Positions 24,707 through 39,078 of a DNA stretch of 64,000 nucleotides are shown one piece after another. Both the position numbers and the translations under genes were made by a program. Within the stretch, counting starts at the first letter, position 1. Every line of letters begins with the position of its first letter. The DNA comes from Candidatus Spongiisociaceae bacterium. Its GTDB lineage: Bacteria > Actinomycetota > Acidimicrobiia > Spongiisociales > Spongiisociaceae. Under the pieces are notes generated by a model. It was not told where the DNA came from, made no database searches, and saw nothing but the letters and a program-made list of their open reading frames with translations. The stretch is from positions 32,001-96,000 of the forward strand of contig CBDCOH010000002.1 of NCBI GenBank assembly GCA_965219685.1. Reading direction: 5' to 3'.

Positions 24707-25393
24707 ATGACATCTCGGCCTCACTACTACGGGCACCGCGAACGGCTCCGGGTACGATTCCTCAGGAGCGGGCTCTCGGGTTTCGCCGAGCATGAAGTCA
24801 TAGAGTTACTCCTGACCCTCGCTATACCTCGGTCCGACGTGAAGATGCCTGCGAAGGCGCTGCTCGCGCGCTTCGGCAGCTTTCGAGGGGTACTCGACGC
24901 GCCGGTTGCCGAGTTGCAATCGGTGAAGGGTATCGGCAGGGTGAGCGCTATCACCCTTCATATCATCCGGGAGTCGGCAACGCTCTACTTGCAGGAAGCC
25001 TCCGAAGGCGCGGAAGTCCTTCGAGGGGCGAGTCGGCTGAGCGACTTTTGGCGCATGCGGATTGGAGGGCTCAAACACGAAGTGTTCGCAGTGGCTTACC
25101 TGGATTCCGCATATCGGCTGCTTCGAAACGGCGTCGAAACGCTCCAGGAGGGAACCATCGATCGCGCCGCGGTGTATCCCCGACGTGTCGTGGAGGCTGC
25201 GCTCAAGCGCCAGGCGGCGGCCTTGGTGCTCGCCCACAACCACCCCAACGGCGTCGTCGAGCCGACCGAGCACGACAAGATCGTCACCCGGGCCATCGTG
25301 CTGGCGGCCGATACCATCAGCCTCAGAGTGGTCGACCACCTGATCGTGTCGCCGCGCGAGGCATTCAGCTTTCGGGAGGCCGGACTCCTGTGA
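24707..25393 (+). CDS. radC: RadC-family JAB/MPN domain protein (full length, with HhH)
   Basis: GHRERLR, GIG HhH, HEVF, GTID, AHNHPNG, VVDHLIV. Confidence 0.93.
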   Translation: MTSRPHYYGHRERLRVRFLRSGLSGFAEHEVIELLLTLAIPRSDVKMPAKALLARFGSFRGVLDAPVAELQSVKGIGRVSAITLHIIRESATLYLQEASEGAEVLRGASRLSDFWRMRIGGLKHEVFAVAYLDSAYRLLRNGVETLQEGTIDRAAVYPRRVVEAALKRQAAALVLAHNHPNGVVEPTEHDKIVTRAIVLAADTISLRVVDHLIVSPREAFSFREAGLL

Positions 25394-28254
25394 ACATCGC
25401 TCCGGCCATCCTCGAGCACTACCCGGAGCTCAACGATGCCCAACGGCGGATCATCGGTCACCTGGACGGCCCCCTGCTGGTGATCGCCGGGCCCGGCTCC
25501 GGCAAGACCTACAGCATCGTCCTGCGGACCATGAACCTTCTGTTGCTGGAGCGGGCCGAGCCCAAGGAGGTGGTGCTGTGCACCTTCACCGAGAAGGCCG
25601 CGCTCGAGATGCGCCACCGGGTGGGGATGGCCGCCCATAAGGTCGGATACCAATCCGACCTTTCCGAGTTGACGATCTCGACGATTCACGGTTTCTGTAA
25701 CCAACTCCTGATGCGCCACCGGCACCGGACACCGCTCGGACACAACTACGAGACCCTCGACGAACTCACGCAGCTTCTCTTCATCTTCGAACACTTTGAT
25801 GAGATTGTCGGCTTGCGCGAGGGCGAACTGTTCCTTACTCGGTGGAGGACACGATGGACGGCAATCGAAGGGGCCCGCGGATACTTCAACAAGATAACGG
25901 AAGAAATGGTCGACCCCTGCCTGCTCGCGACTTCCGACGATCCCTTCCTGAGGGCGATCGGCAGTGCCTACCGGAGCTACGCAAAGTGCCTTCTCGCCAC
26001 CAATCGGGTCGACTTCGCCCATCTGCAGAGGCTCGCCTACGACATGCTCGATGATCCGGCGACCGCCGATGCGGTGTCCCCCGGCCTCCGCTATGTGATG
26101 GTGGACGAGTACCAGGACACCAACTACATCCAGGAACAACTTCTCATGCGAATCACGAGGGCGGACAGCAACCTCTGCGTGGTCGGGGACGAAGATCAGA
26201 GCCTCTACCGCTTCCGGGGCGCCACTGTCAGAAACATCCTGGAGTTCCACCAGCGGGTGCCGGACTGCGCCACCATCAACCTGACCACCAACTACCGATC
26301 GCATCAGGAGGTCGTAGAACGATACGACCGGTGGATGGCCTCAGCTGACTGGTCCAACCCGGAGGGTGACTCCTACCGGCACGACAAGAAAATCGTCGCC
26401 GACTCGGAGACGGAGCATCCCGACTACCCGTCCGTAGTCAGCATCTGGGGAACCACCGACCGGGATGAGGCCGAGCGGTTCGCCGATGTGGTGGAGTTCC
26501 TCAAAGAGAACGGCGTCATCGAGGACTACAGCAATGTGGCGCTGCTGCTGCACAGCGTGCGGGATGCCCATAGCGGTCGGTACCTGAAGGCCCTACAGGC
26601 CAAGGGCATTCCGGCGTTCTGCCCTCGGGCGCGCGCCTTCTTTGACATCCCTGAGATCAGCAGGCTGGTCGGCTGCTACGCGGTGTTGTTCGGATGGCAT
26701 GGCGGTGGACGTGGCGACGTCGGCGGGGCCGTGTGGCGCTTGGCAAAATATGTGGACCGGGCGCTCGTCGATCTCGGTAAGAACTTCGGCTCCACCCATC
26801 CGCTCGCCCAGGGGCTCAAGAAGTGGAGGGCCGAGATCGACGCGCTCCAGGAGGGCGAGACCCTCGATCTCCGGCCCGTCGACTACTTCTACCGCCTGCT
26901 CGCGCTGACGCCGTTCAAAGAGGCTGTCGGAGACGAGAACACCGCTGGCAACCTGGCGATCTTCTCTCAACTCCTCCATGCCTTCCAGAACTATTACCAC
27001 TACCCGGTTATTACACATCGAAACCGTACGTACCTCCGCCTACATTTCTTCAACAGCTTCTTACGCCTCTTGTACACGGGCGGCATCAACGAGTATGAGG
27101 ATCCAGACCAGCCCTTCCCCAAGGGGCATGTGCAGGTGATGACGATCCACCAAGCCAAGGGGCTGGAGTTCCCCGTAGTGGTGGTCGGCTCGCTTGCTAC
27201 ACAGACCCGGAGTGCCAAGCAGATCGACCGGGATCTCAACCCGTTCTATCACCGGTCGCCTTTCGAGCCCGAGGATCGCATCACCCTATTCGACCGGATG
27301 AGGTTGCACTATGTGGCATTCTCCAGACCGGAGAAGCTGCTGGTGCTCACGTCCCCCGAGCAGCCGAAGGGCCACTTCGCCTCCATCTGGCAGGGGCTTC
27401 CCCAGTGGCCGTACGTGCGCAGGGATCTCCTCGCGGCGCAGCGATTCTCGGGCAGCGAACGCCTCCCGGTCAAGAAGACGTACAGCTTCACCGGAGACCT
27501 CAAGATCTACGAGACCTGCCCTCGCCAGTATCAGTTCTTCAGGGAATACGACTTCACCCCTTCCCGTTCGGCGGTGATCTTCTTCGGCCTGTTGGTGCAC
27601 CAGTCCATCGAGGAGATACATCGCTTCGCCCTCGACGGACAGTTGCACACGCTGGACGAAACAGCCATTCGCGACCTGTTCGATCGGACCTTCCACTTCT
27701 TGCGCCTAACCCAGACCCGTCCCATCGGGGTCCGGGCCAGGGAGGCGGCCTTCCGCCAGGTGATGAACTACTTCCATCAGAACCAGGACCAGATGCATCG
27801 GATCATCGAGACCGAGGTGGACGTCTCGTTGGAGAAGGACGACTACATCCTCACCGGGAAGGTCGATCTGCTCCTCGGCGGGGACGGCAAACTCGAGCTA
27901 CTGGACTTCAAGACCTCGCCCCGCCCCCAGGATAGCCCAGAACTGATAGCCGGCTACGAGCGCCAACTGTGCACCTACGCGCACATCGTGGAACAGCGCC
28001 ACGGTCGGCGCGTTGACCGGCTACTGCTCTACTGGACCTCGGAGGAGCGCCGCGAGGACGCCCTCATGGTCCTCCCGTACCGCCCCGATCGGGTGAAGGA
28101 GGCCGGGCGCCACTTTGACGAAACCGTTCGCCTCATCAGAGCCGGAGAGTTCTCCGTCGTGACGCCGCCCGAAGCGGCGATCTGTGGGGAGTGTGACCTG
28201 CGTATGCTTTGTCACGCCGAGGGTATCATCGGTGGATCGACTCTCCCGGCATGA
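25390..28254 (+). CDS. UvrD/Rep-type SF1 helicase fused to a C-terminal PD-(D/E)XK nuclease with probable Fe-S cluster
   Basis: AGPGSGKT, VDEYQD, VGDEDQS, NYRS, MTIHQAKGLEF, YVAFSR; CPRQY...GKVDL...DFKT...QLCTY...CGECDLRMLC. Confidence 0.92.
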   Translation: MNIAPAILEHYPELNDAQRRIIGHLDGPLLVIAGPGSGKTYSIVLRTMNLLLLERAEPKEVVLCTFTEKAALEMRHRVGMAAHKVGYQSDLSELTISTIHGFCNQLLMRHRHRTPLGHNYETLDELTQLLFIFEHFDEIVGLREGELFLTRWRTRWTAIEGARGYFNKITEEMVDPCLLATSDDPFLRAIGSAYRSYAKCLLATNRVDFAHLQRLAYDMLDDPATADAVSPGLRYVMVDEYQDTNYIQEQLLMRITRADSNLCVVGDEDQSLYRFRGATVRNILEFHQRVPDCATINLTTNYRSHQEVVERYDRWMASADWSNPEGDSYRHDKKIVADSETEHPDYPSVVSIWGTTDRDEAERFADVVEFLKENGVIEDYSNVALLLHSVRDAHSGRYLKALQAKGIPAFCPRARAFFDIPEISRLVGCYAVLFGWHGGGRGDVGGAVWRLAKYVDRALVDLGKNFGSTHPLAQGLKKWRAEIDALQEGETLDLRPVDYFYRLLALTPFKEAVGDENTAGNLAIFSQLLHAFQNYYHYPVITHRNRTYLRLHFFNSFLRLLYTGGINEYEDPDQPFPKGHVQVMTIHQAKGLEFPVVVVGSLATQTRSAKQIDRDLNPFYHRSPFEPEDRITLFDRMRLHYVAFSRPEKLLVLTSPEQPKGHFASIWQGLPQWPYVRRDLLAAQRFSGSERLPVKKTYSFTGDLKIYETCPRQYQFFREYDFTPSRSAVIFFGLLVHQSIEEIHRFALDGQLHTLDETAIRDLFDRTFHFLRLTQTRPIGVRAREAAFRQVMNYFHQNQDQMHRIIETEVDVSLEKDDYILTGKVDLLLGGDGKLELLDFKTSPRPQDSPELIAGYERQLCTYAHIVEQRHGRRVDRLLLYWTSEERREDALMVLPYRPDRVKEAGRHFDETVRLIRAGEFSVVTPPEAAICGECDLRMLCHAEGIIGGSTLPA

Positions 28255-28292
28255 CAAGGATCACCTTCTGAGGTAGGACAACGAGGTTGATA

Positions 28293-30167
28293 ATGGCCAA
28301 GATCGACATCACCAAGACCGAGCTGGTCTGGCCCGGCAAGTACAACGAGGACGGCACCCTCAACGAGGCGCCGCGGGTCAGTCTGCCCTTCCAGGTAATC
28401 GAGACCGTCAACGAGAGCCGGGCAACTCGCGAAGTACGGAAGCCGAAGACGATGACGCTTTTCGATATATACGAGCCTCAGGAGGGCGACACGTTCGAGG
28501 AGGGTTGGAGGAACAAACTAATCTGGGGTGACAACCTAGTCGTGATGAACTCCCTTCTCGAAACCTTCGCCGGGAAGATCAAGCTGATCTATATTGATCC
28601 ACCATTCGCCACTGGACTCGACTTTTCTTTTGAAGCACCAGTTGGAGAGAAGAACCAGAAGGTAGCGAAGGAACAATCGATAATTGAAGAGAAGGCTTAC
28701 CGTGACACTTGGGGATTGGGTGTTCAGTCATACATAGAGATGTTATATCGGCGGCTCCAACTCATGCGGGAGTTGCTTACACCCGATGGCAGCATCTACG
28801 TCCACTGTGACTGGCATGTCAACGCCTATATACGCCTCATGTTGGACGAGCTCTTTGGGCAAAGTAACTTCCGGAATAGTATAGTCTGGCACTATTACAA
28901 TAAGTATTCGGCAGCTTCACACTGTTTACCGCGTGCTCATGACGACATTTTCTTTTATTCTCGTAGTGAGAACGTTTCACTCAATGAAATTCGAGAAAAG
29001 AGGGATAAGCCAGTAAGACAACTTGTTCGAGAGAATGTCGGTGGAGTACTGAAGAATGCTAGAGATGCAGACGGAAACCTACTTTACCGTATGTCTTACG
29101 ACAAAAAAATTGATGATGTATGGAGGATCCCACAGCTACAACCAGCATCAAAGGAGTGGACTGGCTATTCAACACAAAAGCATCACGATCTTCTAGACCG
29201 TATTATTCGATCTTCATCAAAGAGGGGCGACTTGGTGGCCGATTTCTTTTGCGGATCTGGAACTACAATCGCCGTTGCAGAGAAGCTAGGTCGTCGTTGG
29301 ATCGGTTGTGATCTTGGGCGTTGGGGCGTCCATGTCACCCGCAAGCGGCTTCTTGATATCGAGGATTGCAGACCGTTCGAGTTGCTGAATCTTGGCAAGT
29401 ACGAGCGGCAATACTGGCAGCGATTAACTTTTGGTACAAGAGGCGGATCGACTTCGGAGCGTACACTCTACGAGTACTTGATATTCATTCTCAAGCTATA
29501 CGGTGCAGAGCCTATTGCCGGGACGGCCTATGTTCATGGTAAGAAAGGTGCGGCCATGGTCCACATTGGTGCAGTGGACGCTCCGGTAACAATTGACGAA
29601 ATCAATAACGCTATTGATGAATGCGTCAAGCTTAGGCAAGACGTGTTGCATGTGCTGGGATGGGAATGGGAGATGGGCCTAGCTGGACCGAACGCAAATG
29701 TAGGCAGGGGTGGACTGATGCACGACCTCGCCCGACAGAAAGGGGTAAAGCTCCTTCTCTTCCAGATTCCTCGTGAGGTGATGGAACAGCATGAGGCTGA
29801 TATCAGTAGCGTGCGCTTTTTCGAGTTGGCTCATCTCAGGGCAACAATGGAGCATTCAGAGGGACTCACCGTGCAGGCGAGGCTTGAGGACTTTGTCATC
29901 CCAAACACCGAGCTAATACCAGATGATGTGAGGAAAAAGATTGACAAGTGGTCTGACTATATCGACTATTGGGCGGTCGACTGGGACTTCCAGAACGATA
30001 CCTTTATGCAGGGATGGGTAACGTACCGCACACGCCGGGATCGAACGCTCTCCCTCACCTCCGACTCGCACACTTATCCGCAGACTGGCAGGTACAGGGT
30101 TCTAATCAAAGTAATCGACATCTTCGGCAACGACACTTCCCAGGCCTTCGACATCGAGGTGGGTTGA
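28293..30167 (+). CDS. mod: Type III restriction-modification methyltransferase (Mod-like, beta class)
   Basis: LIWGDNL, IYIDPPF, then TQK and DFFCGSGTT; AT-richer central TRD; C-terminal KVIDIFGND. Confidence 0.9.
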   Translation: MAKIDITKTELVWPGKYNEDGTLNEAPRVSLPFQVIETVNESRATREVRKPKTMTLFDIYEPQEGDTFEEGWRNKLIWGDNLVVMNSLLETFAGKIKLIYIDPPFATGLDFSFEAPVGEKNQKVAKEQSIIEEKAYRDTWGLGVQSYIEMLYRRLQLMRELLTPDGSIYVHCDWHVNAYIRLMLDELFGQSNFRNSIVWHYYNKYSAASHCLPRAHDDIFFYSRSENVSLNEIREKRDKPVRQLVRENVGGVLKNARDADGNLLYRMSYDKKIDDVWRIPQLQPASKEWTGYSTQKHHDLLDRIIRSSSKRGDLVADFFCGSGTTIAVAEKLGRRWIGCDLGRWGVHVTRKRLLDIEDCRPFELLNLGKYERQYWQRLTFGTRGGSTSERTLYEYLIFILKLYGAEPIAGTAYVHGKKGAAMVHIGAVDAPVTIDEINNAIDECVKLRQDVLHVLGWEWEMGLAGPNANVGRGGLMHDLARQKGVKLLLFQIPREVMEQHEADISSVRFFELAHLRATMEHSEGLTVQARLEDFVIPNTELIPDDVRKKIDKWSDYIDYWAVDWDFQNDTFMQGWVTYRTRRDRTLSLTSDSHTYPQTGRYRVLIKVIDIFGNDTSQAFDIEVG

Positions 30168-30169
30168 TC

Positions 30170-33019
30170 GTGTCCGAGGCGGTAATCGCCTACGACAAGG
30201 ATCTCCCGGAGGTTCCGGGCCGCGTCCCGTGGGAACCGCCGACTTCATACCTGGTTAAGGACGAGGGCGCGCCGAGCGGGTGGCGTGTCGACAACTCCGG
30301 GCGGCGTCCGAGCCAACTCTTGGTGGTCCCGAAGATCCGAGAAGCTGTGGATATTTGGCGGGCCAGTGAGTACGAAGGCGGTTCCGAGGTCACCCGCCGC
30401 CTTTTCCGGTACTGGTTCCACGAGGATCACGAGGTTGCCGGATTCGATGCGCCGTTCCGGTACTGGTTCTGTCAACGTGAGGCTATCGAGACGTTGGCGT
30501 GGCTAATCGAGGTCGACGGTCGGCTGGACACCAAGGAGTTGATCGAGGCCCACGTCGCGATCTTCCAGCGTGACCTGATCTCGAAGAACGTGGAGTTCCA
30601 GACCACCATGGATGGTCGAAGGCAGATCCGCCGTTACGTGCCAGAGTCGGACTCGGAAGGTGTACAGGATCTGCCGCCTGAGAACCTGCCCCGCTTCGCC
30701 TTCAAGATGGCTACCGGCTCAGGAAAGACCTGGGTGATGGCGATGGCCCTGGTGTGGTGTTACTTCCACAAGCAACGAGTACCTGACTCGAACCTTTCCA
30801 CGAACTTCCTTATCGTGGCCCCGAACGTGATCGTGTACCAACGGCTCGAGAAGGATTTCGCGAACAATCGGATATTCCACAAGCTGCCGTTGATTCCGCC
30901 AGAGTGGAGAGGCGGCTTCTCGCAGAGGGTGATCCTGCGCGGGGAGGCCATCGAGCCCGACCCGTCAGGAAACCTGTTCCTCACCAACATCCAACAACTC
31001 TACGAATCTCGGGAACCAGAATGGACCCCTACCAACGCCGTGGACGCCCTACTTGGGAGGAAGCCCGCCCAGAACCTGGCTGTGTCCGGTCAGCGTTCCA
31101 TGCTGGAGAGAGTCAAGTCACTGCCCGATCTCGTGGTGCTGAACGACGAGGCCCACCACGTCCATGACGAAGACCTAGCCTGGACTAGGTCGCTGCTCAC
31201 CGTCCATCAGGAACTCCCGAGGGGTATCAGCACTTGGCTGGATTTTTCGGCCACACCCAGGGACCAGAACGGCATGTACTTTCCCTGGACGGTCTGTGAT
31301 TACCCACTCGCCCAGGCTGTCGAGGACCGGATCGTCAAAGCGCCCCTGATCGTCACCAATGCGGACGACCCGACACAGCCTGCCGATGATCCGAGGCAAG
31401 TCACGAGAGTCAACGCTGTAGAGAAATACGGTTACTGGCTCCGGGCCGCGGTGGCGCGCTGGAAGGAGCACGAGAAGGTCTATAAGGCGCTCTCGGTCAA
31501 GCCGGTCCTCTTCATAATGACAGAGAAGACGCTCTGGGCTAACACTATCGGGGAGTACTTGTATACAACCGAGGAGTTCGGTTTCAAAAAGTCCGAAGTG
31601 CTCATCATCCACACGAACAGCGAGGGCGTAGTCCAAAAGAAAGCCCTTGACCGGGCCCGCAAGGAGGCACGCGATATCGACGAGGCCAAAAGTAGGATTA
31701 AGGTCATCGTTAGCGTGCTGATGCTACGGGAGGGGTGGGATGTACGAAACGTGACGGTCGTGCTCGGATTGCGTCCGTTCACAGCCCGACGGGAAATCCT
31801 CCCCGAGCAGGTGATCGGTCGCGGACTGCGTTTGATGTCACAAGTGAGCCCAGATCGCACCCAGACCCTGGAAGTGCTCGGTACACGAAATCTTCTCGAC
31901 TTCCTGCGCGACAAACTCGAAGCGGAAGGGGTCGGAGTCGTCAGTACAAAGAAGACGCCTCCACTACCGATCACGATCGAACCGGTACTAGAGCGGTTGG
32001 CGTACGACATAGCTATTCCCATTCCCAAGCTGAGTCTGACACACAATGTCCGTAGGCTGTCAGGCTTGGACGTGGACTCGCTTGATGCGATTTTCGACCG
32101 AGAAGACATAGACGAGCGGTACCGAATGCGACTGCGTATGGCGTTTGCTCCCACGGAGACCCACGTCCATCAGGCTGACATAGCCATCGACGATCTTCCA
32201 CCTACCGGAACCATCCTGGCTGGCATAACCAACAAGGTCATAAGTCAGGCCCGACTGACGAATAGTTTCGCCGAGCTGTTTCCGACAGTACATGCTTATG
32301 TTCGCGATCGTTGTTTCGGACGCGAAGTCGATCCAGACGATGAATCCCTGCGCTCCCATCTGAATCGTCTGGAGTTACAGGAGGGGATCGCAGGATACCT
32401 AGCAGCCGAGATCGGTAATCTCACTGTCGAGCGACGCCCCATCGAGTTCGAGAAGGCCGATTTCCGGCTGTCCCAGACGAGGCCTTTCACCTGGCGACGA
32501 GACCTCCCACCGCTGGAGGCGCAGAAGACAGTCTTCAACTATGTGGCCACCTACAATTCCTTCGAGCGTCAATTCGCCGGATTCCTGGATCGCTCTGATG
32601 ACGTGTTGCGGTTTGCAGCGTTGGGTACGACAGAGCAGGGATCTTCAGGGACTGCCTTCCGTGTCGACTACCTGAAGCCAACCGGCGCCATTGGTTTCTA
32701 CTACCCGGACTGGGTGGCCGTTCAGCAGACGGAAGAGGGGGAGGTGAACTGGATCATCGAGACGAAAGGGCGCGTCTGGTACGGCACCGAGGCAAAAGAC
32801 GCCGCCATGAAGAACTGGTGCGAGTCAGTGAGTCGGACGAGCCTCGTGCCGTGGCGGTACCTCCGAGTCAATCAATCCGACTTCCGGCCGGAGGCGGAAT
32901 CGCTCAGGGAGCTCGTTGTCGGGCTCATCGGCGAGGCAATGTTCGCTGAGCGTGACCAACGAGAAACAACCATGTCCCGAGCGGAGATCCGTCAAGCACG
33001 CGACGAAGGCCGTGCATGA
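30170..33019 (+). CDS. res: Type III restriction endonuclease (Res) with extra antitoxin-like C-terminal tail
   Basis: KMATGSGKT, NDEAHH, LREGWD, EQVIGRGLR, YPDWV...IIETKG; ends ...MSRAEIRQARDEGRA. Confidence 0.88.
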   Translation: MSEAVIAYDKDLPEVPGRVPWEPPTSYLVKDEGAPSGWRVDNSGRRPSQLLVVPKIREAVDIWRASEYEGGSEVTRRLFRYWFHEDHEVAGFDAPFRYWFCQREAIETLAWLIEVDGRLDTKELIEAHVAIFQRDLISKNVEFQTTMDGRRQIRRYVPESDSEGVQDLPPENLPRFAFKMATGSGKTWVMAMALVWCYFHKQRVPDSNLSTNFLIVAPNVIVYQRLEKDFANNRIFHKLPLIPPEWRGGFSQRVILRGEAIEPDPSGNLFLTNIQQLYESREPEWTPTNAVDALLGRKPAQNLAVSGQRSMLERVKSLPDLVVLNDEAHHVHDEDLAWTRSLLTVHQELPRGISTWLDFSATPRDQNGMYFPWTVCDYPLAQAVEDRIVKAPLIVTNADDPTQPADDPRQVTRVNAVEKYGYWLRAAVARWKEHEKVYKALSVKPVLFIMTEKTLWANTIGEYLYTTEEFGFKKSEVLIIHTNSEGVVQKKALDRARKEARDIDEAKSRIKVIVSVLMLREGWDVRNVTVVLGLRPFTARREILPEQVIGRGLRLMSQVSPDRTQTLEVLGTRNLLDFLRDKLEAEGVGVVSTKKTPPLPITIEPVLERLAYDIAIPIPKLSLTHNVRRLSGLDVDSLDAIFDREDIDERYRMRLRMAFAPTETHVHQADIAIDDLPPTGTILAGITNKVISQARLTNSFAELFPTVHAYVRDRCFGREVDPDDESLRSHLNRLELQEGIAGYLAAEIGNLTVERRPIEFEKADFRLSQTRPFTWRRDLPPLEAQKTVFNYVATYNSFERQFAGFLDRSDDVLRFAALGTTEQGSSGTAFRVDYLKPTGAIGFYYPDWVAVQQTEEGEVNWIIETKGRVWYGTEAKDAAMKNWCESVSRTSLVPWRYLRVNQSDFRPEAESLRELVVGLIGEAMFAERDQRETTMSRAEIRQARDEGRA

Positions 33020-33411
33020 TGGCCGTTGTTATTGACGCTTCAACGGCGGCCGCGTGGTGCTTTCGTGACGAGGAGGGTACTGGAGAAGCCGACGCTGCTA
33101 TTGCGCGGTTGTCAGTTGAGACCGGGATTGTCCCGGGACTCTTCTGGCACGAGATGCGTAACGTCTTGGTAGTAGCCGAGCGGAGCGGACGGATCACATC
33201 TACAGACGTCGAACGCAACCTGTATCACCTCCGGACGCTACCTCTCCTCACAGACGATGACCAGAGCGACATCGATACGGTGGTTCTAGCGCGACGTCAT
33301 GGTCTGAGCGGCTACGACGCCGCCTACCTCGAGACCGCGAAACGGCACGGTGCAGATTTGGCGACTCTCGACAGGAAGCTCGCAACCGCTTCTGCTCGGG
33401 AAGGTTTGTGA
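33016..33411 (+). CDS. vapC: VapC-family PIN domain ribonuclease toxin
   Basis: VIDAS..AAWCF.DE, WHEMRNVL, LSGYDAAYL, LATLDRKL; ATGA overlap with res stop. Confidence 0.92.
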   Translation: MMAVVIDASTAAAWCFRDEEGTGEADAAIARLSVETGIVPGLFWHEMRNVLVVAERSGRITSTDVERNLYHLRTLPLLTDDDQSDIDTVVLARRHGLSGYDAAYLETAKRHGADLATLDRKLATASAREGL

Positions 33412-33442
33412 TGGACCCAACTCCAACACGTAGGGGCCCGTC

Positions 33443-34747
33443 CTAGCGCTTCCCGCTAACCCTCGCCGCCCAACCGTTCCTGGTCGCATCTGTAGTGACC
33501 GGCAGTGATGCCAGCGATCTGTGGTTGATCGACGCGACCCGGTCGGGCGGGCGACTATCCGCAAGGCGGGCTTCGGGGAACCCTGCCAGGAAGCCCTCGA
33601 CGGCGATCGTCGTCTCGAGGCGGGCGAGGGCGGCGCCTAGGCAGAAGTGGCGGCCGCGTCCGAACGAAAGGTGCGGCACCGAGGAAAAGGTCCGATCGGC
33701 CAGGTAGTGGTGTGGATCGGCGAAGCGGGTCGGGTCGCGATTGGCGGCAGAGATGACCGCGCTCACGGGATCTCCCGCCTTGATGACCGCGTCGCCGAGT
33801 TCAGTGTCCTCGACCGTGAGTCTGCGGAGCCTCGTGATTGATGGCTCGGAACGGAGCGTCTCCTCGATTGCGCCGGGCAGCAAGTCCGGCGAGGTTCGCA
33901 CCTTGTCGAGTTGGTCGGGATGGGTGAGCAGGCAGTGGATGGTGTTCGCTATCAGAGCCGTCGTCGTCTCGTGGCCGGCGATCAGCAGATGGATCGCCGT
34001 GAACAGCGCTTCCTCGAGAGTCATCCGCTCGGAACCCACCAGGGCGGCCAGTTCTGTGAGGAAGTCGTGCTCCGGCTGTTCCGATCGGGCGTCCAGCAGC
34101 CCGAGAATGAGCGATCGCCACTCGACCAGGGACCGGTCGAGGGCGCGGGCGTAGACGGGAACCGGGGCGGGGGTGCCGAAGAACCGGATCACCTCCGCTG
34201 ACCAGATGGGGAACCTACGGCGATCCGGTTCGGGAACCCCGAGCAACTCCGCGATCACGGTGACCGGGACCTGCTTGGCCAGACCGGCTACCACGTCGAA
34301 CTGTTCGTTCCGCAGGCGGGCCTCGTTGATCAGGACGGCGACACGCTCCGAGATGGTGGTACCGAGGTGAGACACGGCCTTGGGTGAGAAGGAAGGGCCC
34401 AGGATGCGTCTCAATCGGGTGTGCTCGGGAGGATCGGTCTGGATCAGGCCCTGCTGGTTGTAGTGATGGCGGAGCGTGCCGACTTCGCGATGGACGGCGG
34501 CGGGCAGCCGACCGATGAACGTCTTGTTGAAACCGAAGTTGGAGAACTCGCCGGGTGAGAGCAGGACCTTCTCGACCAGGTCGTAGGACGTGACGAGCCA
34601 CTGCTCGAGGTAGGGACTCCAGTAGACAGGTGTGGTCTCCTGAAGCCGTTCGTACCAGGTATGGGGGTGGCGCGCGAACGCTCCCGAGGCCAGGGCCTCC
34701 TCGATCCGATCGATGGGTTCAGGCTTCGTCGCCAATGGTGGCCCCAC
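33443..34747 (-). CDS. Cytochrome P450
   Basis: DPPEHTRLR, AGHETT, EETLR, FGRGRHFCLG heme ligand; start uncertain (34735-34747). Confidence 0.95.
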   Translation of the reverse strand: MGPPLATKPEPIDRIEEALASGAFARHPHTWYERLQETTPVYWSPYLEQWLVTSYDLVEKVLLSPGEFSNFGFNKTFIGRLPAAVHREVGTLRHHYNQQGLIQTDPPEHTRLRRILGPSFSPKAVSHLGTTISERVAVLINEARLRNEQFDVVAGLAKQVPVTVIAELLGVPEPDRRRFPIWSAEVIRFFGTPAPVPVYARALDRSLVEWRSLILGLLDARSEQPEHDFLTELAALVGSERMTLEEALFTAIHLLIAGHETTTALIANTIHCLLTHPDQLDKVRTSPDLLPGAIEETLRSEPSITRLRRLTVEDTELGDAVIKAGDPVSAVISAANRDPTRFADPHHYLADRTFSSVPHLSFGRGRHFCLGAALARLETTIAVEGFLAGFPEARLADSRPPDRVASINHRSLASLPVTTDATRNGWAARVSGKR

Positions 34748-37006: not shown

Positions 37007-37792
37007 ATGGGCCGGCTCGACGACAAGGTGGCGGTGGTAACCGGATCGTCTCGCGGTCTCGGGGAAGGGATCGCCCGGCACCTGGCCGCCGAAGGTGCGG
37101 CCGTGGTGTGTGCCGATGTGCTTGACGCCTCCGAAGTGGCCGCATCATTGCCCGCCGCACCCTCGGGCGCTCGCGCCGCGGCCGTCCACCTCGATGTCAC
37201 CGACAGTGGCCGGGTTGAGGAGGTCATGCGCGACGTCGCCGCCGAGTACGGGAGTCTCGACATCCTCGCCAACAACGCCGGGGTTGCGCAGCCGATCGCC
37301 GAGGTGATCGACACGTCCGACGAGGTGATCGACCAGGTTTTCGCGGTGAACGTGCGGGGGGTGATCAACTGCTCCCGGTCTGCGGCGCACATCATGAAGG
37401 AGAACATGTGGGGCCGGATCATCAACACCGCCTCGCAGACGGGGAAGGTGGCCTGGCCGGGTTGGGGCATCTATTCGGTCTCCAAGTTCGCGGTGGTCGG
37501 ACTCACCCAGGTGATGGCTCTCGAGCTCGCGGCCTACAACATCACCGTCAACGCCATCTGTCCCGGCACGATGTTCACCAATATGACCAGGACCGGTTTC
37601 GGCATGGCTGCGCAGATGGCGGGCAGGGAACGCGAGGACCTGCTCGCCGAGCACATCGCCACCATCCCGATGCAGCGTCTGGGAACCGCGGACGACATCG
37701 GGGCGATGGCGGCCTTCCTGGCTTCCGACGACGCCAAGTTCACGACGGGCGCCAGCCTCAACCTGACGGGCGGCGAGCAGGTCTTTTTCTAG
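37007..37792 (+). CDS. SDR family oxidoreductase
   Basis: TGSSRGLG, NNAG, YSVSK, VNAICPG; AAGGAGG RBS. Confidence 0.92.
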   Translation: MGRLDDKVAVVTGSSRGLGEGIARHLAAEGAAVVCADVLDASEVAASLPAAPSGARAAAVHLDVTDSGRVEEVMRDVAAEYGSLDILANNAGVAQPIAEVIDTSDEVIDQVFAVNVRGVINCSRSAAHIMKENMWGRIINTASQTGKVAWPGWGIYSVSKFAVVGLTQVMALELAAYNITVNAICPGTMFTNMTRTGFGMAAQMAGREREDLLAEHIATIPMQRLGTADDIGAMAAFLASDDAKFTTGASLNLTGGEQVFF

Positions 37793-37831
37793 GACTCCCG
37801 GCATCCGGCGACCGGCCCTGAACGTGATGCC

Positions 37832-38944
37832 ATGAGCGGGATGCGTGCCGCCGTCTACCACGGCGCCCGCGACATCAGGATCGAGGAGATCGGTGTTCCC
37901 GAGCCTGGACCCGGAGAGTTGCTCCTCGAGGTGCACGCAGCCGGAATCTGCGGCACGGACGCATCCGAGTGGGATCACGGACCGATGATGTTCCCCGTGT
38001 CCGAGCGCAACCAGTGGTCCGGTCATGCAGGTCCGATGGTTCCCGGTCACGAGTTCGGCGGGCGGGTGGTCGACCGCGGCCCCGGCGTGGAGGGTTTCCC
38101 GGACGGCACGCTGGTGGCGAGCGGCGCCGGAGTGTCGTGCGGATCGTGCGGTCCGTGCCGGGCGGTCATCACCAACTTCTGCGAGCGATACTTCACGGTG
38201 GGCCTGCAGAGGAACGGAGCCCTGGCCCAGTACGTGGCGGTTCCGGCGGGCGTCTGCCTGGATGTGGGTGAGTTGGGCCTCGACGACGACGGGGCCGCCT
38301 TGGTCCAGCCCATGTCGATCGCCCTCCACTCTCTCCGCCGGGGCGAACCGGATCGCGGGGACTCCGTGGTCGTGATCGGGATCGGTGGGGTTGGCGCCTT
38401 CCTGGTCTACGCGGCCGCCCGGTCCGGCCTGCGGGTGTTGGCCGCCGATCTCGATCCGGAACGCCTGCGGATCGCCGCTGCACTCGGCGCTTCTCTCACC
38501 CTCCAGGTCGACCCGGATGAACCCCTGGCCGGCCAGCTGGCAAGCGCTCTCGGAGGACGGGCTGCCGCTGCCTACGAGGTGACGGGAGTCCCTTCGGTGC
38601 TGAACGCGGCGCTCGATGTGGTAGCGCCGCGGGGGCGGGTGGTGGCGATCGGGCTCGGCGCGGCGCCCGTGCCGGTCGATGTGCGGTCCCTCACGCTGCG
38701 GGAGCTGTGCCTGGTGGGCACCAACGCCCACGTCTTCGCGGCCGACTTCGCTGATGCCGCCCGGCTGGTGGCGAGCCGCGCCGCGGGTTGGTCCGACGTG
38801 GCGCCGGTCGCCCTGCCCCTCGACCGCGTGGTGGCCGACGGGCTCCGTCCGATGGTGGACCGGAAGCCCGAGCGGATCAAGACCCTCGTCGACCCCTGGA
38901 CGACCACCATCCGACCGGCGGCAGGAATAGTGAATAGTGAATAG
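37832..38944 (+). CDS. Zinc-dependent alcohol dehydrogenase (butanediol/threonine dehydrogenase-like)
   Basis: ICGTD, GHEFGG, CGSCGPC...C, GIGGVG. Confidence 0.92.
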   Translation: MSGMRAAVYHGARDIRIEEIGVPEPGPGELLLEVHAAGICGTDASEWDHGPMMFPVSERNQWSGHAGPMVPGHEFGGRVVDRGPGVEGFPDGTLVASGAGVSCGSCGPCRAVITNFCERYFTVGLQRNGALAQYVAVPAGVCLDVGELGLDDDGAALVQPMSIALHSLRRGEPDRGDSVVVIGIGGVGAFLVYAAARSGLRVLAADLDPERLRIAAALGASLTLQVDPDEPLAGQLASALGGRAAAAYEVTGVPSVLNAALDVVAPRGRVVAIGLGAAPVPVDVRSLTLRELCLVGTNAHVFAADFADAARLVASRAAGWSDVAPVALPLDRVVADGLRPMVDRKPERIKTLVDPWTTTIRPAAGIVNSE

Positions 38945-38989
38945 TGAATAGTGAATAGTGAATAGTGAATAGTGAATAGTGAATAGTGA
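38925..38989. repeat. Heptamer tandem array (GAATAGT)x9
   Basis: Perfect units; supplies last codons and TAG of the ADH gene. Confidence 0.95.
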
Positions 38990-39029
38990 GAAGCTATATA
39001 CGTTAGCAGTGATTAAGTAGATGTGGTAG

Positions 39030-39078
39030 CCACCACTCACGACTCACCACTCACGACTCACCACTCACGACTCACCAG
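39030..39078. repeat. Heptamer array alternating TCACGAC/TCACCAC, opposite orientation to 38925-38989
   Basis: Directly visible; 14-bp higher-order period. Confidence 0.9.

Follow-up and report, generated by a model that had tools for sequence, protein, structure and literature searches.

We describe here a three-gene unit, mod-res-vapC, in which a type III restriction subunit ends in an antitoxin-like tail and its gene runs directly into that of a putative PIN-domain toxin. The unit lies in a stretch of 64,000 nucleotides from Candidatus Spongiisociaceae bacterium (assembly GCA_965219685.1, contig CBDCOH010000002.1, positions 32,001 to 96,000 of the forward strand), which is called the window in the following. 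The architecture is widely conserved, the tail of the restriction subunit Res is strictly linked to vapC, and its sequence is related to the C-termini of free antitoxins of the Phd/YefM type. Probably, the toxin-binding peptide of such an antitoxin has been grafted onto Res, giving a Mod-Res-VapC unit in which a ribonuclease (RNase) is held on Res. The graft had been proposed earlier from inspection of the DNA (below, the original prediction). It is supported by the co-occurrence of tail and vapC, by the likeness of the tail to Phd/YefM C-termini, by an operon-type junction, by a model of the complex and by the finding that Res is the sole carrier of the peptide in the genome.

Results

A C-terminal extension of Res that travels with vapC

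The helicase region of Res is recognized by Pfam as ResIII (PF04851, E 3.8e-17, residues 161-364) and by PADLOC as REase_III (E 2.6e-16). The putative nuclease domain gives a weak RE_endonuc match (Pfam, E 5.7e-4, 20.1 bits against a cut-off of 23.4, residues 786-868); its residues D847, E864 and K866 are invariant in homologue alignments of 20 and of 60 sequences, in tailed and tail-less proteins alike. Behind this domain the reading frame continues and ends in ...GEAMFAERDQRETTMSRAEIRQARDEGRA, exactly the C-terminus that had been quoted before, while tail-less homologues end about 25-30 amino acids (aa) earlier, right past the last nuclease strand and a short helix. The extra part, given originally as 32915-33019, is placed here at 32921-33016 (Table 1), and internal ATG codons lie within the tail-coding stretch at 32939 and 32972. 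PF02604, the Phd/YefM family, was not matched by Pfam anywhere in Res, and the last 50 aa match no family at E<=1. An AlphaFold2 model of the whole of Res (mean pLDDT, the predicted score in the local distance difference test, 69.5) forms the tail as a helix (912-931), a loop and a second helix (937-945), with pLDDT falling from 87 to 50 towards the end; this fall would fit a segment that becomes ordered upon binding.

A protein library contains 1399 Res homologues at E<=0.001, and the tail was scored in the 120 best of them: it is present in 106, 13 end at the earlier point and one is odd. For a census of genomic loci, 80 loci were kept of 436 Res relatives in species-representative genomes, and a locus was called tailed when it matched a hidden Markov model (HMM) of the tail at E<=1e-3. 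By this measure 24 loci are tailed and 56 are tail-less. A VapC-family gene lies directly downstream in 21 of the 24 tailed loci (20 intact, one, L021, frameshifted) and downstream of none of the 56 tail-less ones, 48 of which have at least 400 bp of downstream sequence; the Res loci are mutually related and these counts are therefore not independent trials. The expectation that the tail occurs only where vapC follows is thus borne out with three exceptions, in which vapC has visibly been lost. In L027 the gene is absent, in L028 A+T-rich sequence lies past the Res stop at the expected vapC start, and in L017, where vapC is gone, the tail motif itself has decayed to ARCQDRT. Decay of the tail was seen only where vapC is gone.

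Tailed loci carry labels of at least seven phyla (Acidimicrobiia; Acidobacteriota with Vicinamibacterales and Bryobacterales; Chloroflexota; Gamma- and Alphaproteobacteria; Gemmatimonadota; Latescibacterota), and across loci that keep the pair the identity of Res goes down to about 53-60%. The pair is also found in three genomes of the window's own family (L002-L004). A search with the tail profile through 400 genomes of the class found three other genomes, namely G009, which was already known, G017, which holds the L017 locus, and G331 with a small free antitoxin (see below); no remnant form of the tail turned up in these 400 genomes.

Other genes of defence type often stand 0-100 bp downstream of tail-less Res genes (L051, L084, L090, L030, L067, L096). 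These include DruA (E 1e-116 to 1e-119), an OLD-like AAA_15/TOPRIM ATPase, a nucleotidyltransferase and DUF5647, and the 3' flank of this res family has the look of a site where accessory genes dock. A further locus, L076 (5245-5794; also L188), from a metagenome-assembled genome labelled Deltaproteobacteria, encodes a Res homologue with another, proline-rich extension of 45 aa, followed 3 bp past res by a PIN gene of another family (Pfam E 5e-12); a canonical Phd-like antitoxin and a paralogous PIN gene lie convergently alongside. The extension shares nine identical residues with the antitoxin that belongs to the nearest PIN homologue found (L189). When this extension was compared with antitoxins of the L189 type, BLASTP with background gave E 0.055, with chance hits scoring better, and an HMM of six sequences gave no match. 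L076 may be a second, independent graft, and we take it as a lead only and not as evidence.

VapC and the only visible source of a cognate-type peptide

VapC has 720 homologues at E<=0.001. The four acidic positions noted originally are all present (D7, E46, D101 and D119 in 131-aa numbering). E46, D101 and D119 never vary across an alignment of 64 homologues, in which D7 is retained in at least 90%. VapC is under selection, with catalytic positions invariant or nearly so. It matches no PADLOC family, and the nearest solved chain by sequence is the PIN protein PAE0151 (2fe1), which was solved alone (profile match E 7.4e-10).

An antitoxin-like open reading frame (ORF) is found in the window neither between res and vapC nor 3' of vapC, in agreement with the original prediction. 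A Phd query finds nothing at E<=1e-5 in the window's genome, and the sole match of the tail HMM among the 60,331 six-frame ORFs of that genome is Res itself; other Phd-like ORFs of the genome match in the N-terminal domain only. Res is thus the only visible source of a cognate-type neutralizing peptide. Among 300 genomes of the phylum the Phd query is positive in 10 at E<=1e-5, all distant, and the window's genome is not among these, while a VapC search through 400 genomes of the phylum finds eight other positive genomes, five of them also Phd-positive. A second, distant VapC-like gene exists in the window's genome (C2:4108279-4108976, VapC HMM E 6e-7). It has its own small upstream ORF, the end of which reaches only E 1.6 with the tail HMM, and looks like part of an ordinary separate toxin-antitoxin pair.

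Relation of the tail to free antitoxins

Relatives of the toxin do have separate antitoxins. Within the window's bacterial family, an 85-aa protein precedes VapCs with 44-49% identity to that of the window (L014, L005); this protein is Phd/YefM over residues 1-60 (PF02604, E 1.2e-10) and ends in ...GVKMTKEEILAARHEGHRF. This protein has 208 homologues, and the ending ...M(T/S)xEEILAARHEGHR is kept in 40 that were aligned. The original prediction had stated that antitoxins preceding such VapCs often end in an EIxxxxxEGRx-like motif, and free Phd/YefM antitoxins indeed end so. In metagenomes, 63 of 80 Phd loci have a VapC-family gene on the same strand at E<=1e-15, and the antitoxin ends found in these loci, such as ...EILSARDEGRR and ...EEIIAWKNEGRK, mirror the two main types of Res tail, ...EVRQARDEGRA and ...EEIRAWKEEGRR. 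As for the other 17 loci, six contigs end at or within the antitoxin, eight hold Phd proteins with unrelated C-termini, and in L168, L173 and L181 the antitoxin is altered and any VapC hit is weak.

The profile comparison that had been suggested was carried out in two ways. Alignment of a profile of 103 Res tails with one of 120 antitoxins (hhalign) gave P 7.5e-6 and a probability of 84%, with the C-termini matched to each other over 17 columns. A 20-aa HMM, made from no other sequences than Res tails, was searched against 63,544 ORFs, namely the 60,331 of the window's genome and those of the Phd loci. Its matches at E<=0.01 are Res and the antitoxins of 11 Phd loci, and nothing else of the genome, and the strongest match per Phd locus sits at the C-terminus. 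These comparisons support the view that the tail corresponds to the C-terminal peptide with which a VapB antitoxin of the Phd/YefM type binds its toxin. It seems that vapC and the 3' end of a phd-type gene were captured in one piece and that the fusion point fell within the antitoxin gene. In genome G331 a small free antitoxin (L225:1085-1827, minus strand) ends in ...ITREQILEALDEGRRE and a few further residues, and a PIN gene follows it; by eye, this antitoxin looked ribbon-helix-helix-like. Because the same ending stands on this antitoxin too, the toxin-binding peptide would be a portable module and Res one more of its carriers.

The res-vapC junction

At the end of res the stop codon and two possible start codons interlock. 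The TGA was said to overlap the ATG of the PIN gene, and this holds for ATG 33016 (ATGA overlap) and for ATG 33019 (TGATG overlap), both of which open the PIN frame. ATG 33016 is a possible start of vapC, but ATG 33019 is the likelier one, because homologues have 130 aa and begin with MA(V/I)VIDAS. The GAAGG at 33005-33009 stands at the distance of a ribosome-binding site and is likely the Shine-Dalgarno sequence for vapC. Among 25 loci read, the Res stop runs straight into ATG (TGATG or TAATG) in 19, the window included. At the remaining junctions the start is either a GTG or TTG that coincides with the stop or, a few nucleotides (nt) past it, an ATG or GTG. A GA(R)GG stretch about 6-10 nt upstream is supplied by (D/E)-E-G codons. 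This layout is that of an antitoxin-toxin operon. The tight junction predicts translational coupling, by which the amount of VapC would not exceed that of Res. A terminator scan picked out a short GGCC...GGCC hairpin (33008-33024, plus strand) that encloses the res stop and the vapC start; it was given no weight, because it is largely forced by the Gly-Arg-Ala/Met-Ala codons.

The junction was also followed in other contigs. Those that come from two runs of a single sample, which may be the source, extend unchanged over 32400-33500. In another study a 353-nt contig crosses 32978-33318 with 9 differences, and in a third one a contig of 5.7 kb with about 89% identity passes from the Res end into a VapC-like start.

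Predicted complex of tail and VapC

Co-folding of tail and VapC, which had been put forward together with the original prediction, was done with VapC (alignment of 64) and Res 905-949 (alignment of 60). The complex scored 0.73, against 0.03 for the best of three controls; the mark used for this score is reached by 58 of 80 solved complexes and by 2 of 110 mismatched pairs. Three runs have at least 91% of their contacts in common, with a partner pLDDT of at least 79. Confident contacts involve residues 910-946 of the tail and, on the side of VapC, residues 8-9, 46, 100 and 118-119, which lie around the four catalytic acids, and also residues 12-34 and 49-76. According to this model the tail would bind VapC, and contacts beside all four acids suggest occlusion of the active site.

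Origin and decay of the tail

In a VapC tree of 86 sequences, the 24 Res-linked proteins form one side of a branch (Shimodaira-Hasegawa-like approximate likelihood ratio test, SH-aLRT, 96) and the 62 Phd-linked proteins the other, and one change of linkage suffices, a number that none of 500 label shuffles reached; the two sets come from different collections, the tree was made by a 'quick' method, and the frameshifted L021 and hits with fewer than 100 profile positions were left out. Distances between Res cores and between VapCs are correlated over 20 loci (Mantel r 0.667; none of 5000 permutations gave so high a value).

Among 1.84 billion representative proteins, a 45-position tail profile matches 25 at E<=0.001: two of the size of Res, two unrelated repeat proteins, and 21 short ones (70-361 aa) whose match lies at the very C-terminus in every case. 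Compared with the proteins of the window, five of the 21 are chimeras of the tail with Mod, RadC or another N-terminus: P0363 joins Mod 6-60 to Res 899-949, P0368 joins RadC 17-114 to Res 900-949, P0374 joins RadC 21-106 to the Res end, P0375 has another N-terminus before Res 925-949, and P0371 combines the Mod N-terminus with two pieces of Res. About ten further remnants of approximately 160 aa begin with a Met at the start of the nuclease domain and end in the tail, and in seven of them the catalytic Lys of the E-x-K motif is replaced. In P0370, P0380, P0384 and P0385 the identity of the tail to the best full-length tail is 58-69%, whereas the nuclease domain reaches 41-56%. Read most simply, this means that restriction genes can decay or go, while a translated tail must stay as long as vapC is active. 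We lean towards the view that the remnants favour at least an addiction-like constraint.

Neighbourhood of the unit

The genes of the island are co-oriented and their G+C content is below that of the genome (mod 50%, res 59% and vapC 59%, against 65% overall), mod being the most A+T-rich gene of the unit. The type III Mod gene adjoins res on the same strand, and its stop lies 3 nt before the GTG of res. The C-terminus of Mod (residues 563-623) gives a weak PKD-domain match (E 0.0032), which is below the cut-off. Directly 5' of mod lie a RadC-like gene and a UvrD-type helicase gene (together 24707-28254, plus strand) with a G+C content of 60-63%. Since the chimeras P0368 and P0374 join a RadC N-terminus to the Res tail, radC stands upstream of res in relatives too. 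On the other side, a convergent gene ends at 33443, 31 nt beyond vapC; it contains FGRGRHFCLGAALAR, which we take to be the haem-binding signature of cytochrome P450, and its G+C content is back to 65%, marking the right edge of the island. Further away, a minus-strand ORF (37145-39040) opens with three copies of a YSLFTIH peptide (window positions about 38900-39040), pointing to a short tandem repeat in the DNA.

Table 1. Features of the mod-res-vapC unit and its flanks (window coordinates)
Feature	Position	Strand	Basis
RadC-like gene, upstream of mod	24707-25393	+	Pfam RadC E 4.2e-32
UvrD-type helicase of ~920 aa with C-terminal PD-(D/E)XK/Cas4-like nuclease	about 25.4-28.25 kb	+	UvrD-helicase E 1e-55; PDDEXK_1 E 8.9e-24; PADLOC GajB-like E 1.2e-43
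mod, type III DNA methyltransferase, first gene of the unit	28287-30167	+	Pfam N6_N4_Mtase E 1.4e-45; PADLOC MTase_III PDLC03633 E 1.8e-123, residues 8-619
res, type III restriction subunit, 949 aa: superfamily 2 (SF2) helicase, putative C-terminal PD-(D/E)XK nuclease, antitoxin-like tail	30170-33019	+	GTG start, TGA 33017-33019
Nuclease domain of Res, about residues 786-905, ending in strand WRYLRVNQ	32525-32884	+	RE_endonuc match; AlphaFold2 last strand 895-901
Antitoxin-like tail of Res, ~32 aa, about residues 918-949: GLIGEAMFAERDQRETTMSRAEIRQARDEGRA	32921-33016	+	Absent from tail-less homologues; tail HMM
res/vapC junction: GAAGG 33005-33009 (D-E-G codons), TGA 33017-33019, ATGs 33016 and 33019	33005-33021	+	Read in the sequence
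vapC, putative PIN-domain toxin, 130 or 131 aa, acidic quartet D7, E46, D101, D119	33016-33411	+	Pfam PIN PF01850 E 1.6e-12
Convergent gene	33443-34747	-	Contains FGRGRHFCLGAALAR

Discussion

A toxin probably held on a restriction enzyme

The arrangement suggests a mechanism of the following kind. Mod and Res would assemble into a type III enzyme, and vapC would be translated by termination-reinitiation at the res stop, so that there is at most as much VapC as Res. The Res tail would wrap around the PIN active site, and the RNase would be latent and tethered to the Mod-Res complex. VapCs usually act on tRNA or rRNA loops. Loss or occupation of the tail would free VapC and cause growth arrest; possible ways of release are gene loss and dilution, proteolysis of Res, a phage factor that attacks Res, or a conformational change when Res fires. 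If the tail neutralizes VapC, the trigger that we tentatively put first, at somewhat less than an even chance, is loss or decay of the restriction genes, by which the toxin would stabilize the cassette in the manner of addiction. It is possible, if rather doubtful, that the trigger is a phage counter-defence that destroys or inhibits Res, which would make VapC a guard acting by abortive infection. Release when Res engages unmodified DNA, that is, a coupling of restriction to dormancy, seems fairly unlikely; what is left falls to other triggers or to none. A guard role like that in PrrC-EcoprrI would be equally compatible with the anatomy. EcoP1I and EcoP15I Res are unstable without Mod, and if this is so here, VapC would report on the whole complex. 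EcoP15I is described as Mod2Res1 (PMC4490356).

Several points weigh against the proposal of a grafted and inhibitory peptide. The evidence is computational throughout, and from it we infer the toxicity of VapC, its binding and its inhibition. Res is large and presumably stable, whereas a classical addiction module needs a labile antitoxin. An HMM of the whole antitoxin finds the 120 Res proteins only weakly one by one (best E 0.0011), although its matches sit at the Res C-terminus in most tailed proteins. Conservation of the D-E-G-R codons could partly reflect their second role as the ribosome-binding site of vapC. The structure predictor may recall the general VapB-VapC fold, and it used alignments of our own, for which the calibration of the score is only rough. 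Three of the 24 tailed loci (L017, L027, L028) are without vapC, so that the tail can outlast the toxin for a while. For the remnant proteins a downstream vapC is assumed, and a protein library shows in-frame remnants only, which is an ascertainment bias. Finally, on a FastTree of the Res core (79 rows; L086 was left out because the anchor motif failed, L001-L004 because the loci were too short, and the window is not in the tree) the tail needs five changes, at least two of them forced. The tail does not form one clade on this tree and we do not claim a single gain on the side of Res; repeated changes imply that loss of the tail, or exchange of the 3' end together with vapC, is common, and gain is also possible.

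Other explanations of the same facts have to be considered. The tail could be a tether and not an inhibitor, bringing VapC to the complex as an accessory nuclease that is active while bound or is switched on by unmodified DNA. The same co-occurrence, co-inheritance and binding model would fit, other effectors do follow Res homologues (DruA in L051 and L084, the OLD-like ATPase-TOPRIM protein in L090), and a coupling of immunity to dormancy in restriction-modification (RM) loci has been proposed (Makarova et al. 2012, PMC3506569). Nevertheless, we regard it as unlikely. The peptide is the one used by free antitoxins with sister VapCs, and antitoxins inhibit; the predicted contacts next to the four catalytic acids suggest occlusion; and remnants that keep the tail with the restriction domains gone or inactive are hard to explain if the tail serves restriction only.

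It is improbable that a free mini-antitoxin of 26 or 15 residues is made from the internal ATG 32939 or 32972 and that the fusion to Res is incidental. Both ATGs exist, at least 90% of 60 homologues with a tail retain M924 and a GAGG stands just 5' of ATG 32939, but it ends 2 nt before this ATG, too close for a usual ribosome-binding site. Moreover, tails of the W type (L028, L032, L036, L052, L071, L087) have no Met at the position of M924, position 935 varies between M, L, V, T and I, a Met at 935 also occurs inside free antitoxins, where it is not a start, and in the remnants the tail is always the in-frame continuation of a longer N-terminal part that has a start of its own.

Even less probable is a frozen accident, in which a restriction cassette inserted into vapBC and truncated it, the fusion was inherited, VapC is inert or neutralized from elsewhere and the tail has no function. 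A single event could explain the origin, as the Res-linked VapCs form one clade, and vapC has been lost from the three tailed loci named above. Such an accident should hardly persist as a pair over at least seven phyla and down to the low Res identities seen, with 20 of 21 vapC copies intact, catalytic residues invariant and the tail motif conserved. In addition, tail decay is confined to L017, where vapC is gone, and the window's genome has no other cognate-type antitoxin. A one-off deletion or misassembly that joined res to a broken vapB is ruled out by the 106 tailed proteins among the 120 homologues, by 24 tailed loci elsewhere and by contigs of other studies that bridge the junction.

Relation to known systems

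The grafted antitoxin peptide, which we continue to prefer, places the unit next to several known systems. With VapBC modules of the Phd/YefM type it shares the VapC family, as a sister clade, the C-terminal toxin-binding motif, the overlap of stop and start with a ribosome-binding site in the last antitoxin codons, and the predicted binding of a peptide over the active site. In contrast to these modules there is no separate antitoxin gene, the upstream gene being res; the DNA-binding and dimerization domain of Phd/YefM is lacking (no PF02604 match); and the peptide ends a restriction subunit of 949 aa. Antitoxins usually autoregulate through an operator-binding domain. This autoregulatory domain is missing here, because neither Res nor the tail matches PF02604. 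Modular antitoxins offer a further parallel, since a ...EQILEALDEGRR-type ending stands both on Phd/YefM domains and on the L225 antitoxin with its ribbon-helix-helix-like appearance by eye; unlike there, the carrier here is an enzyme of another defence system and not a small repressor domain.

PrrC-EcoprrI is alike in that a latent RNase is encoded in an RM locus and is masked by the restriction enzyme, which for VapC is presumed. However, PrrC is an anticodon nuclease of the ABC-ATPase type without similarity to VapC, a PIN protein that belongs to no PADLOC family; EcoprrI is a type Ic enzyme and the one described here is type III; and PrrC is not masked via a grafted antitoxin peptide. According to a 2025 review, PrrC is activated when the phage T4 protein Stp inhibits EcoprrI (PMC12707154).

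PIN genes have also been reported in type I RM operons, sometimes without an antitoxin, and it was stated that no direct interaction between toxin-antitoxin (TA) and RM systems had been shown (Matelska et al. 2017, PMC5499597). In contrast to the present unit, those PIN-like genes stand in type I contexts and are poorly conserved between close species, and the part of that paper available to us describes no antitoxin peptide on a restriction subunit. Toxin-like domains (HEPN, Sir2, ParB, REase) were noted in type I and type III loci (Makarova et al. 2012, PMC3506569), and a PIN protein with an unrelated ATPase partner is described in a preprint (Payne et al. 2024). VapC is not mentioned in the available part of the 2025 RM review (PMC12707154). 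The original prediction held that the architecture was undescribed, and we likewise found no description of a Res-antitoxin fusion in a literature search that did not extend to subscription journals and supplementary files. The parts, that is, type III RM, VapC and the Phd-type VapB peptide, are known; their wiring appears to be new.

Significance

RM and TA systems are usually treated as neighbours in defence islands, and a direct link at the protein level is documented mainly for PrrC-EcoprrI. Here, the link is specified by the sequence itself, as a toxin-binding peptide ends the restriction subunit in well over a hundred proteins, which come from many phyla. The arrangement provides a testable model of the way in which a toxin can be linked to an immune enzyme's integrity, be it as a guard, by addiction or by coupled dormancy, and it accounts for annotated 'orphan' VapC genes beside res. 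More speculatively, VapC could be a sentinel of Res: degradation, blocking or unfolding of Res by a phage counter-defence, or Res firing on foreign DNA, would free the tail and the RNase would shut the cell down, making the unit a type III analogue of PrrC-EcoprrI, and the same graft may have recurred with another PIN family in L076. We hold this as a doubtful extension, but if it is true, the repeat in L076 would make antitoxin peptides, used as portable tethers, a general way to wire toxins to immune proteins. Antitoxin peptides are able to move onto carriers that are not antitoxins, and short C-terminal extensions of defence proteins are worth screening for such tethers. Remnants in which only the tail is kept hint at a constraint that the toxin puts on the decay of restriction genes.

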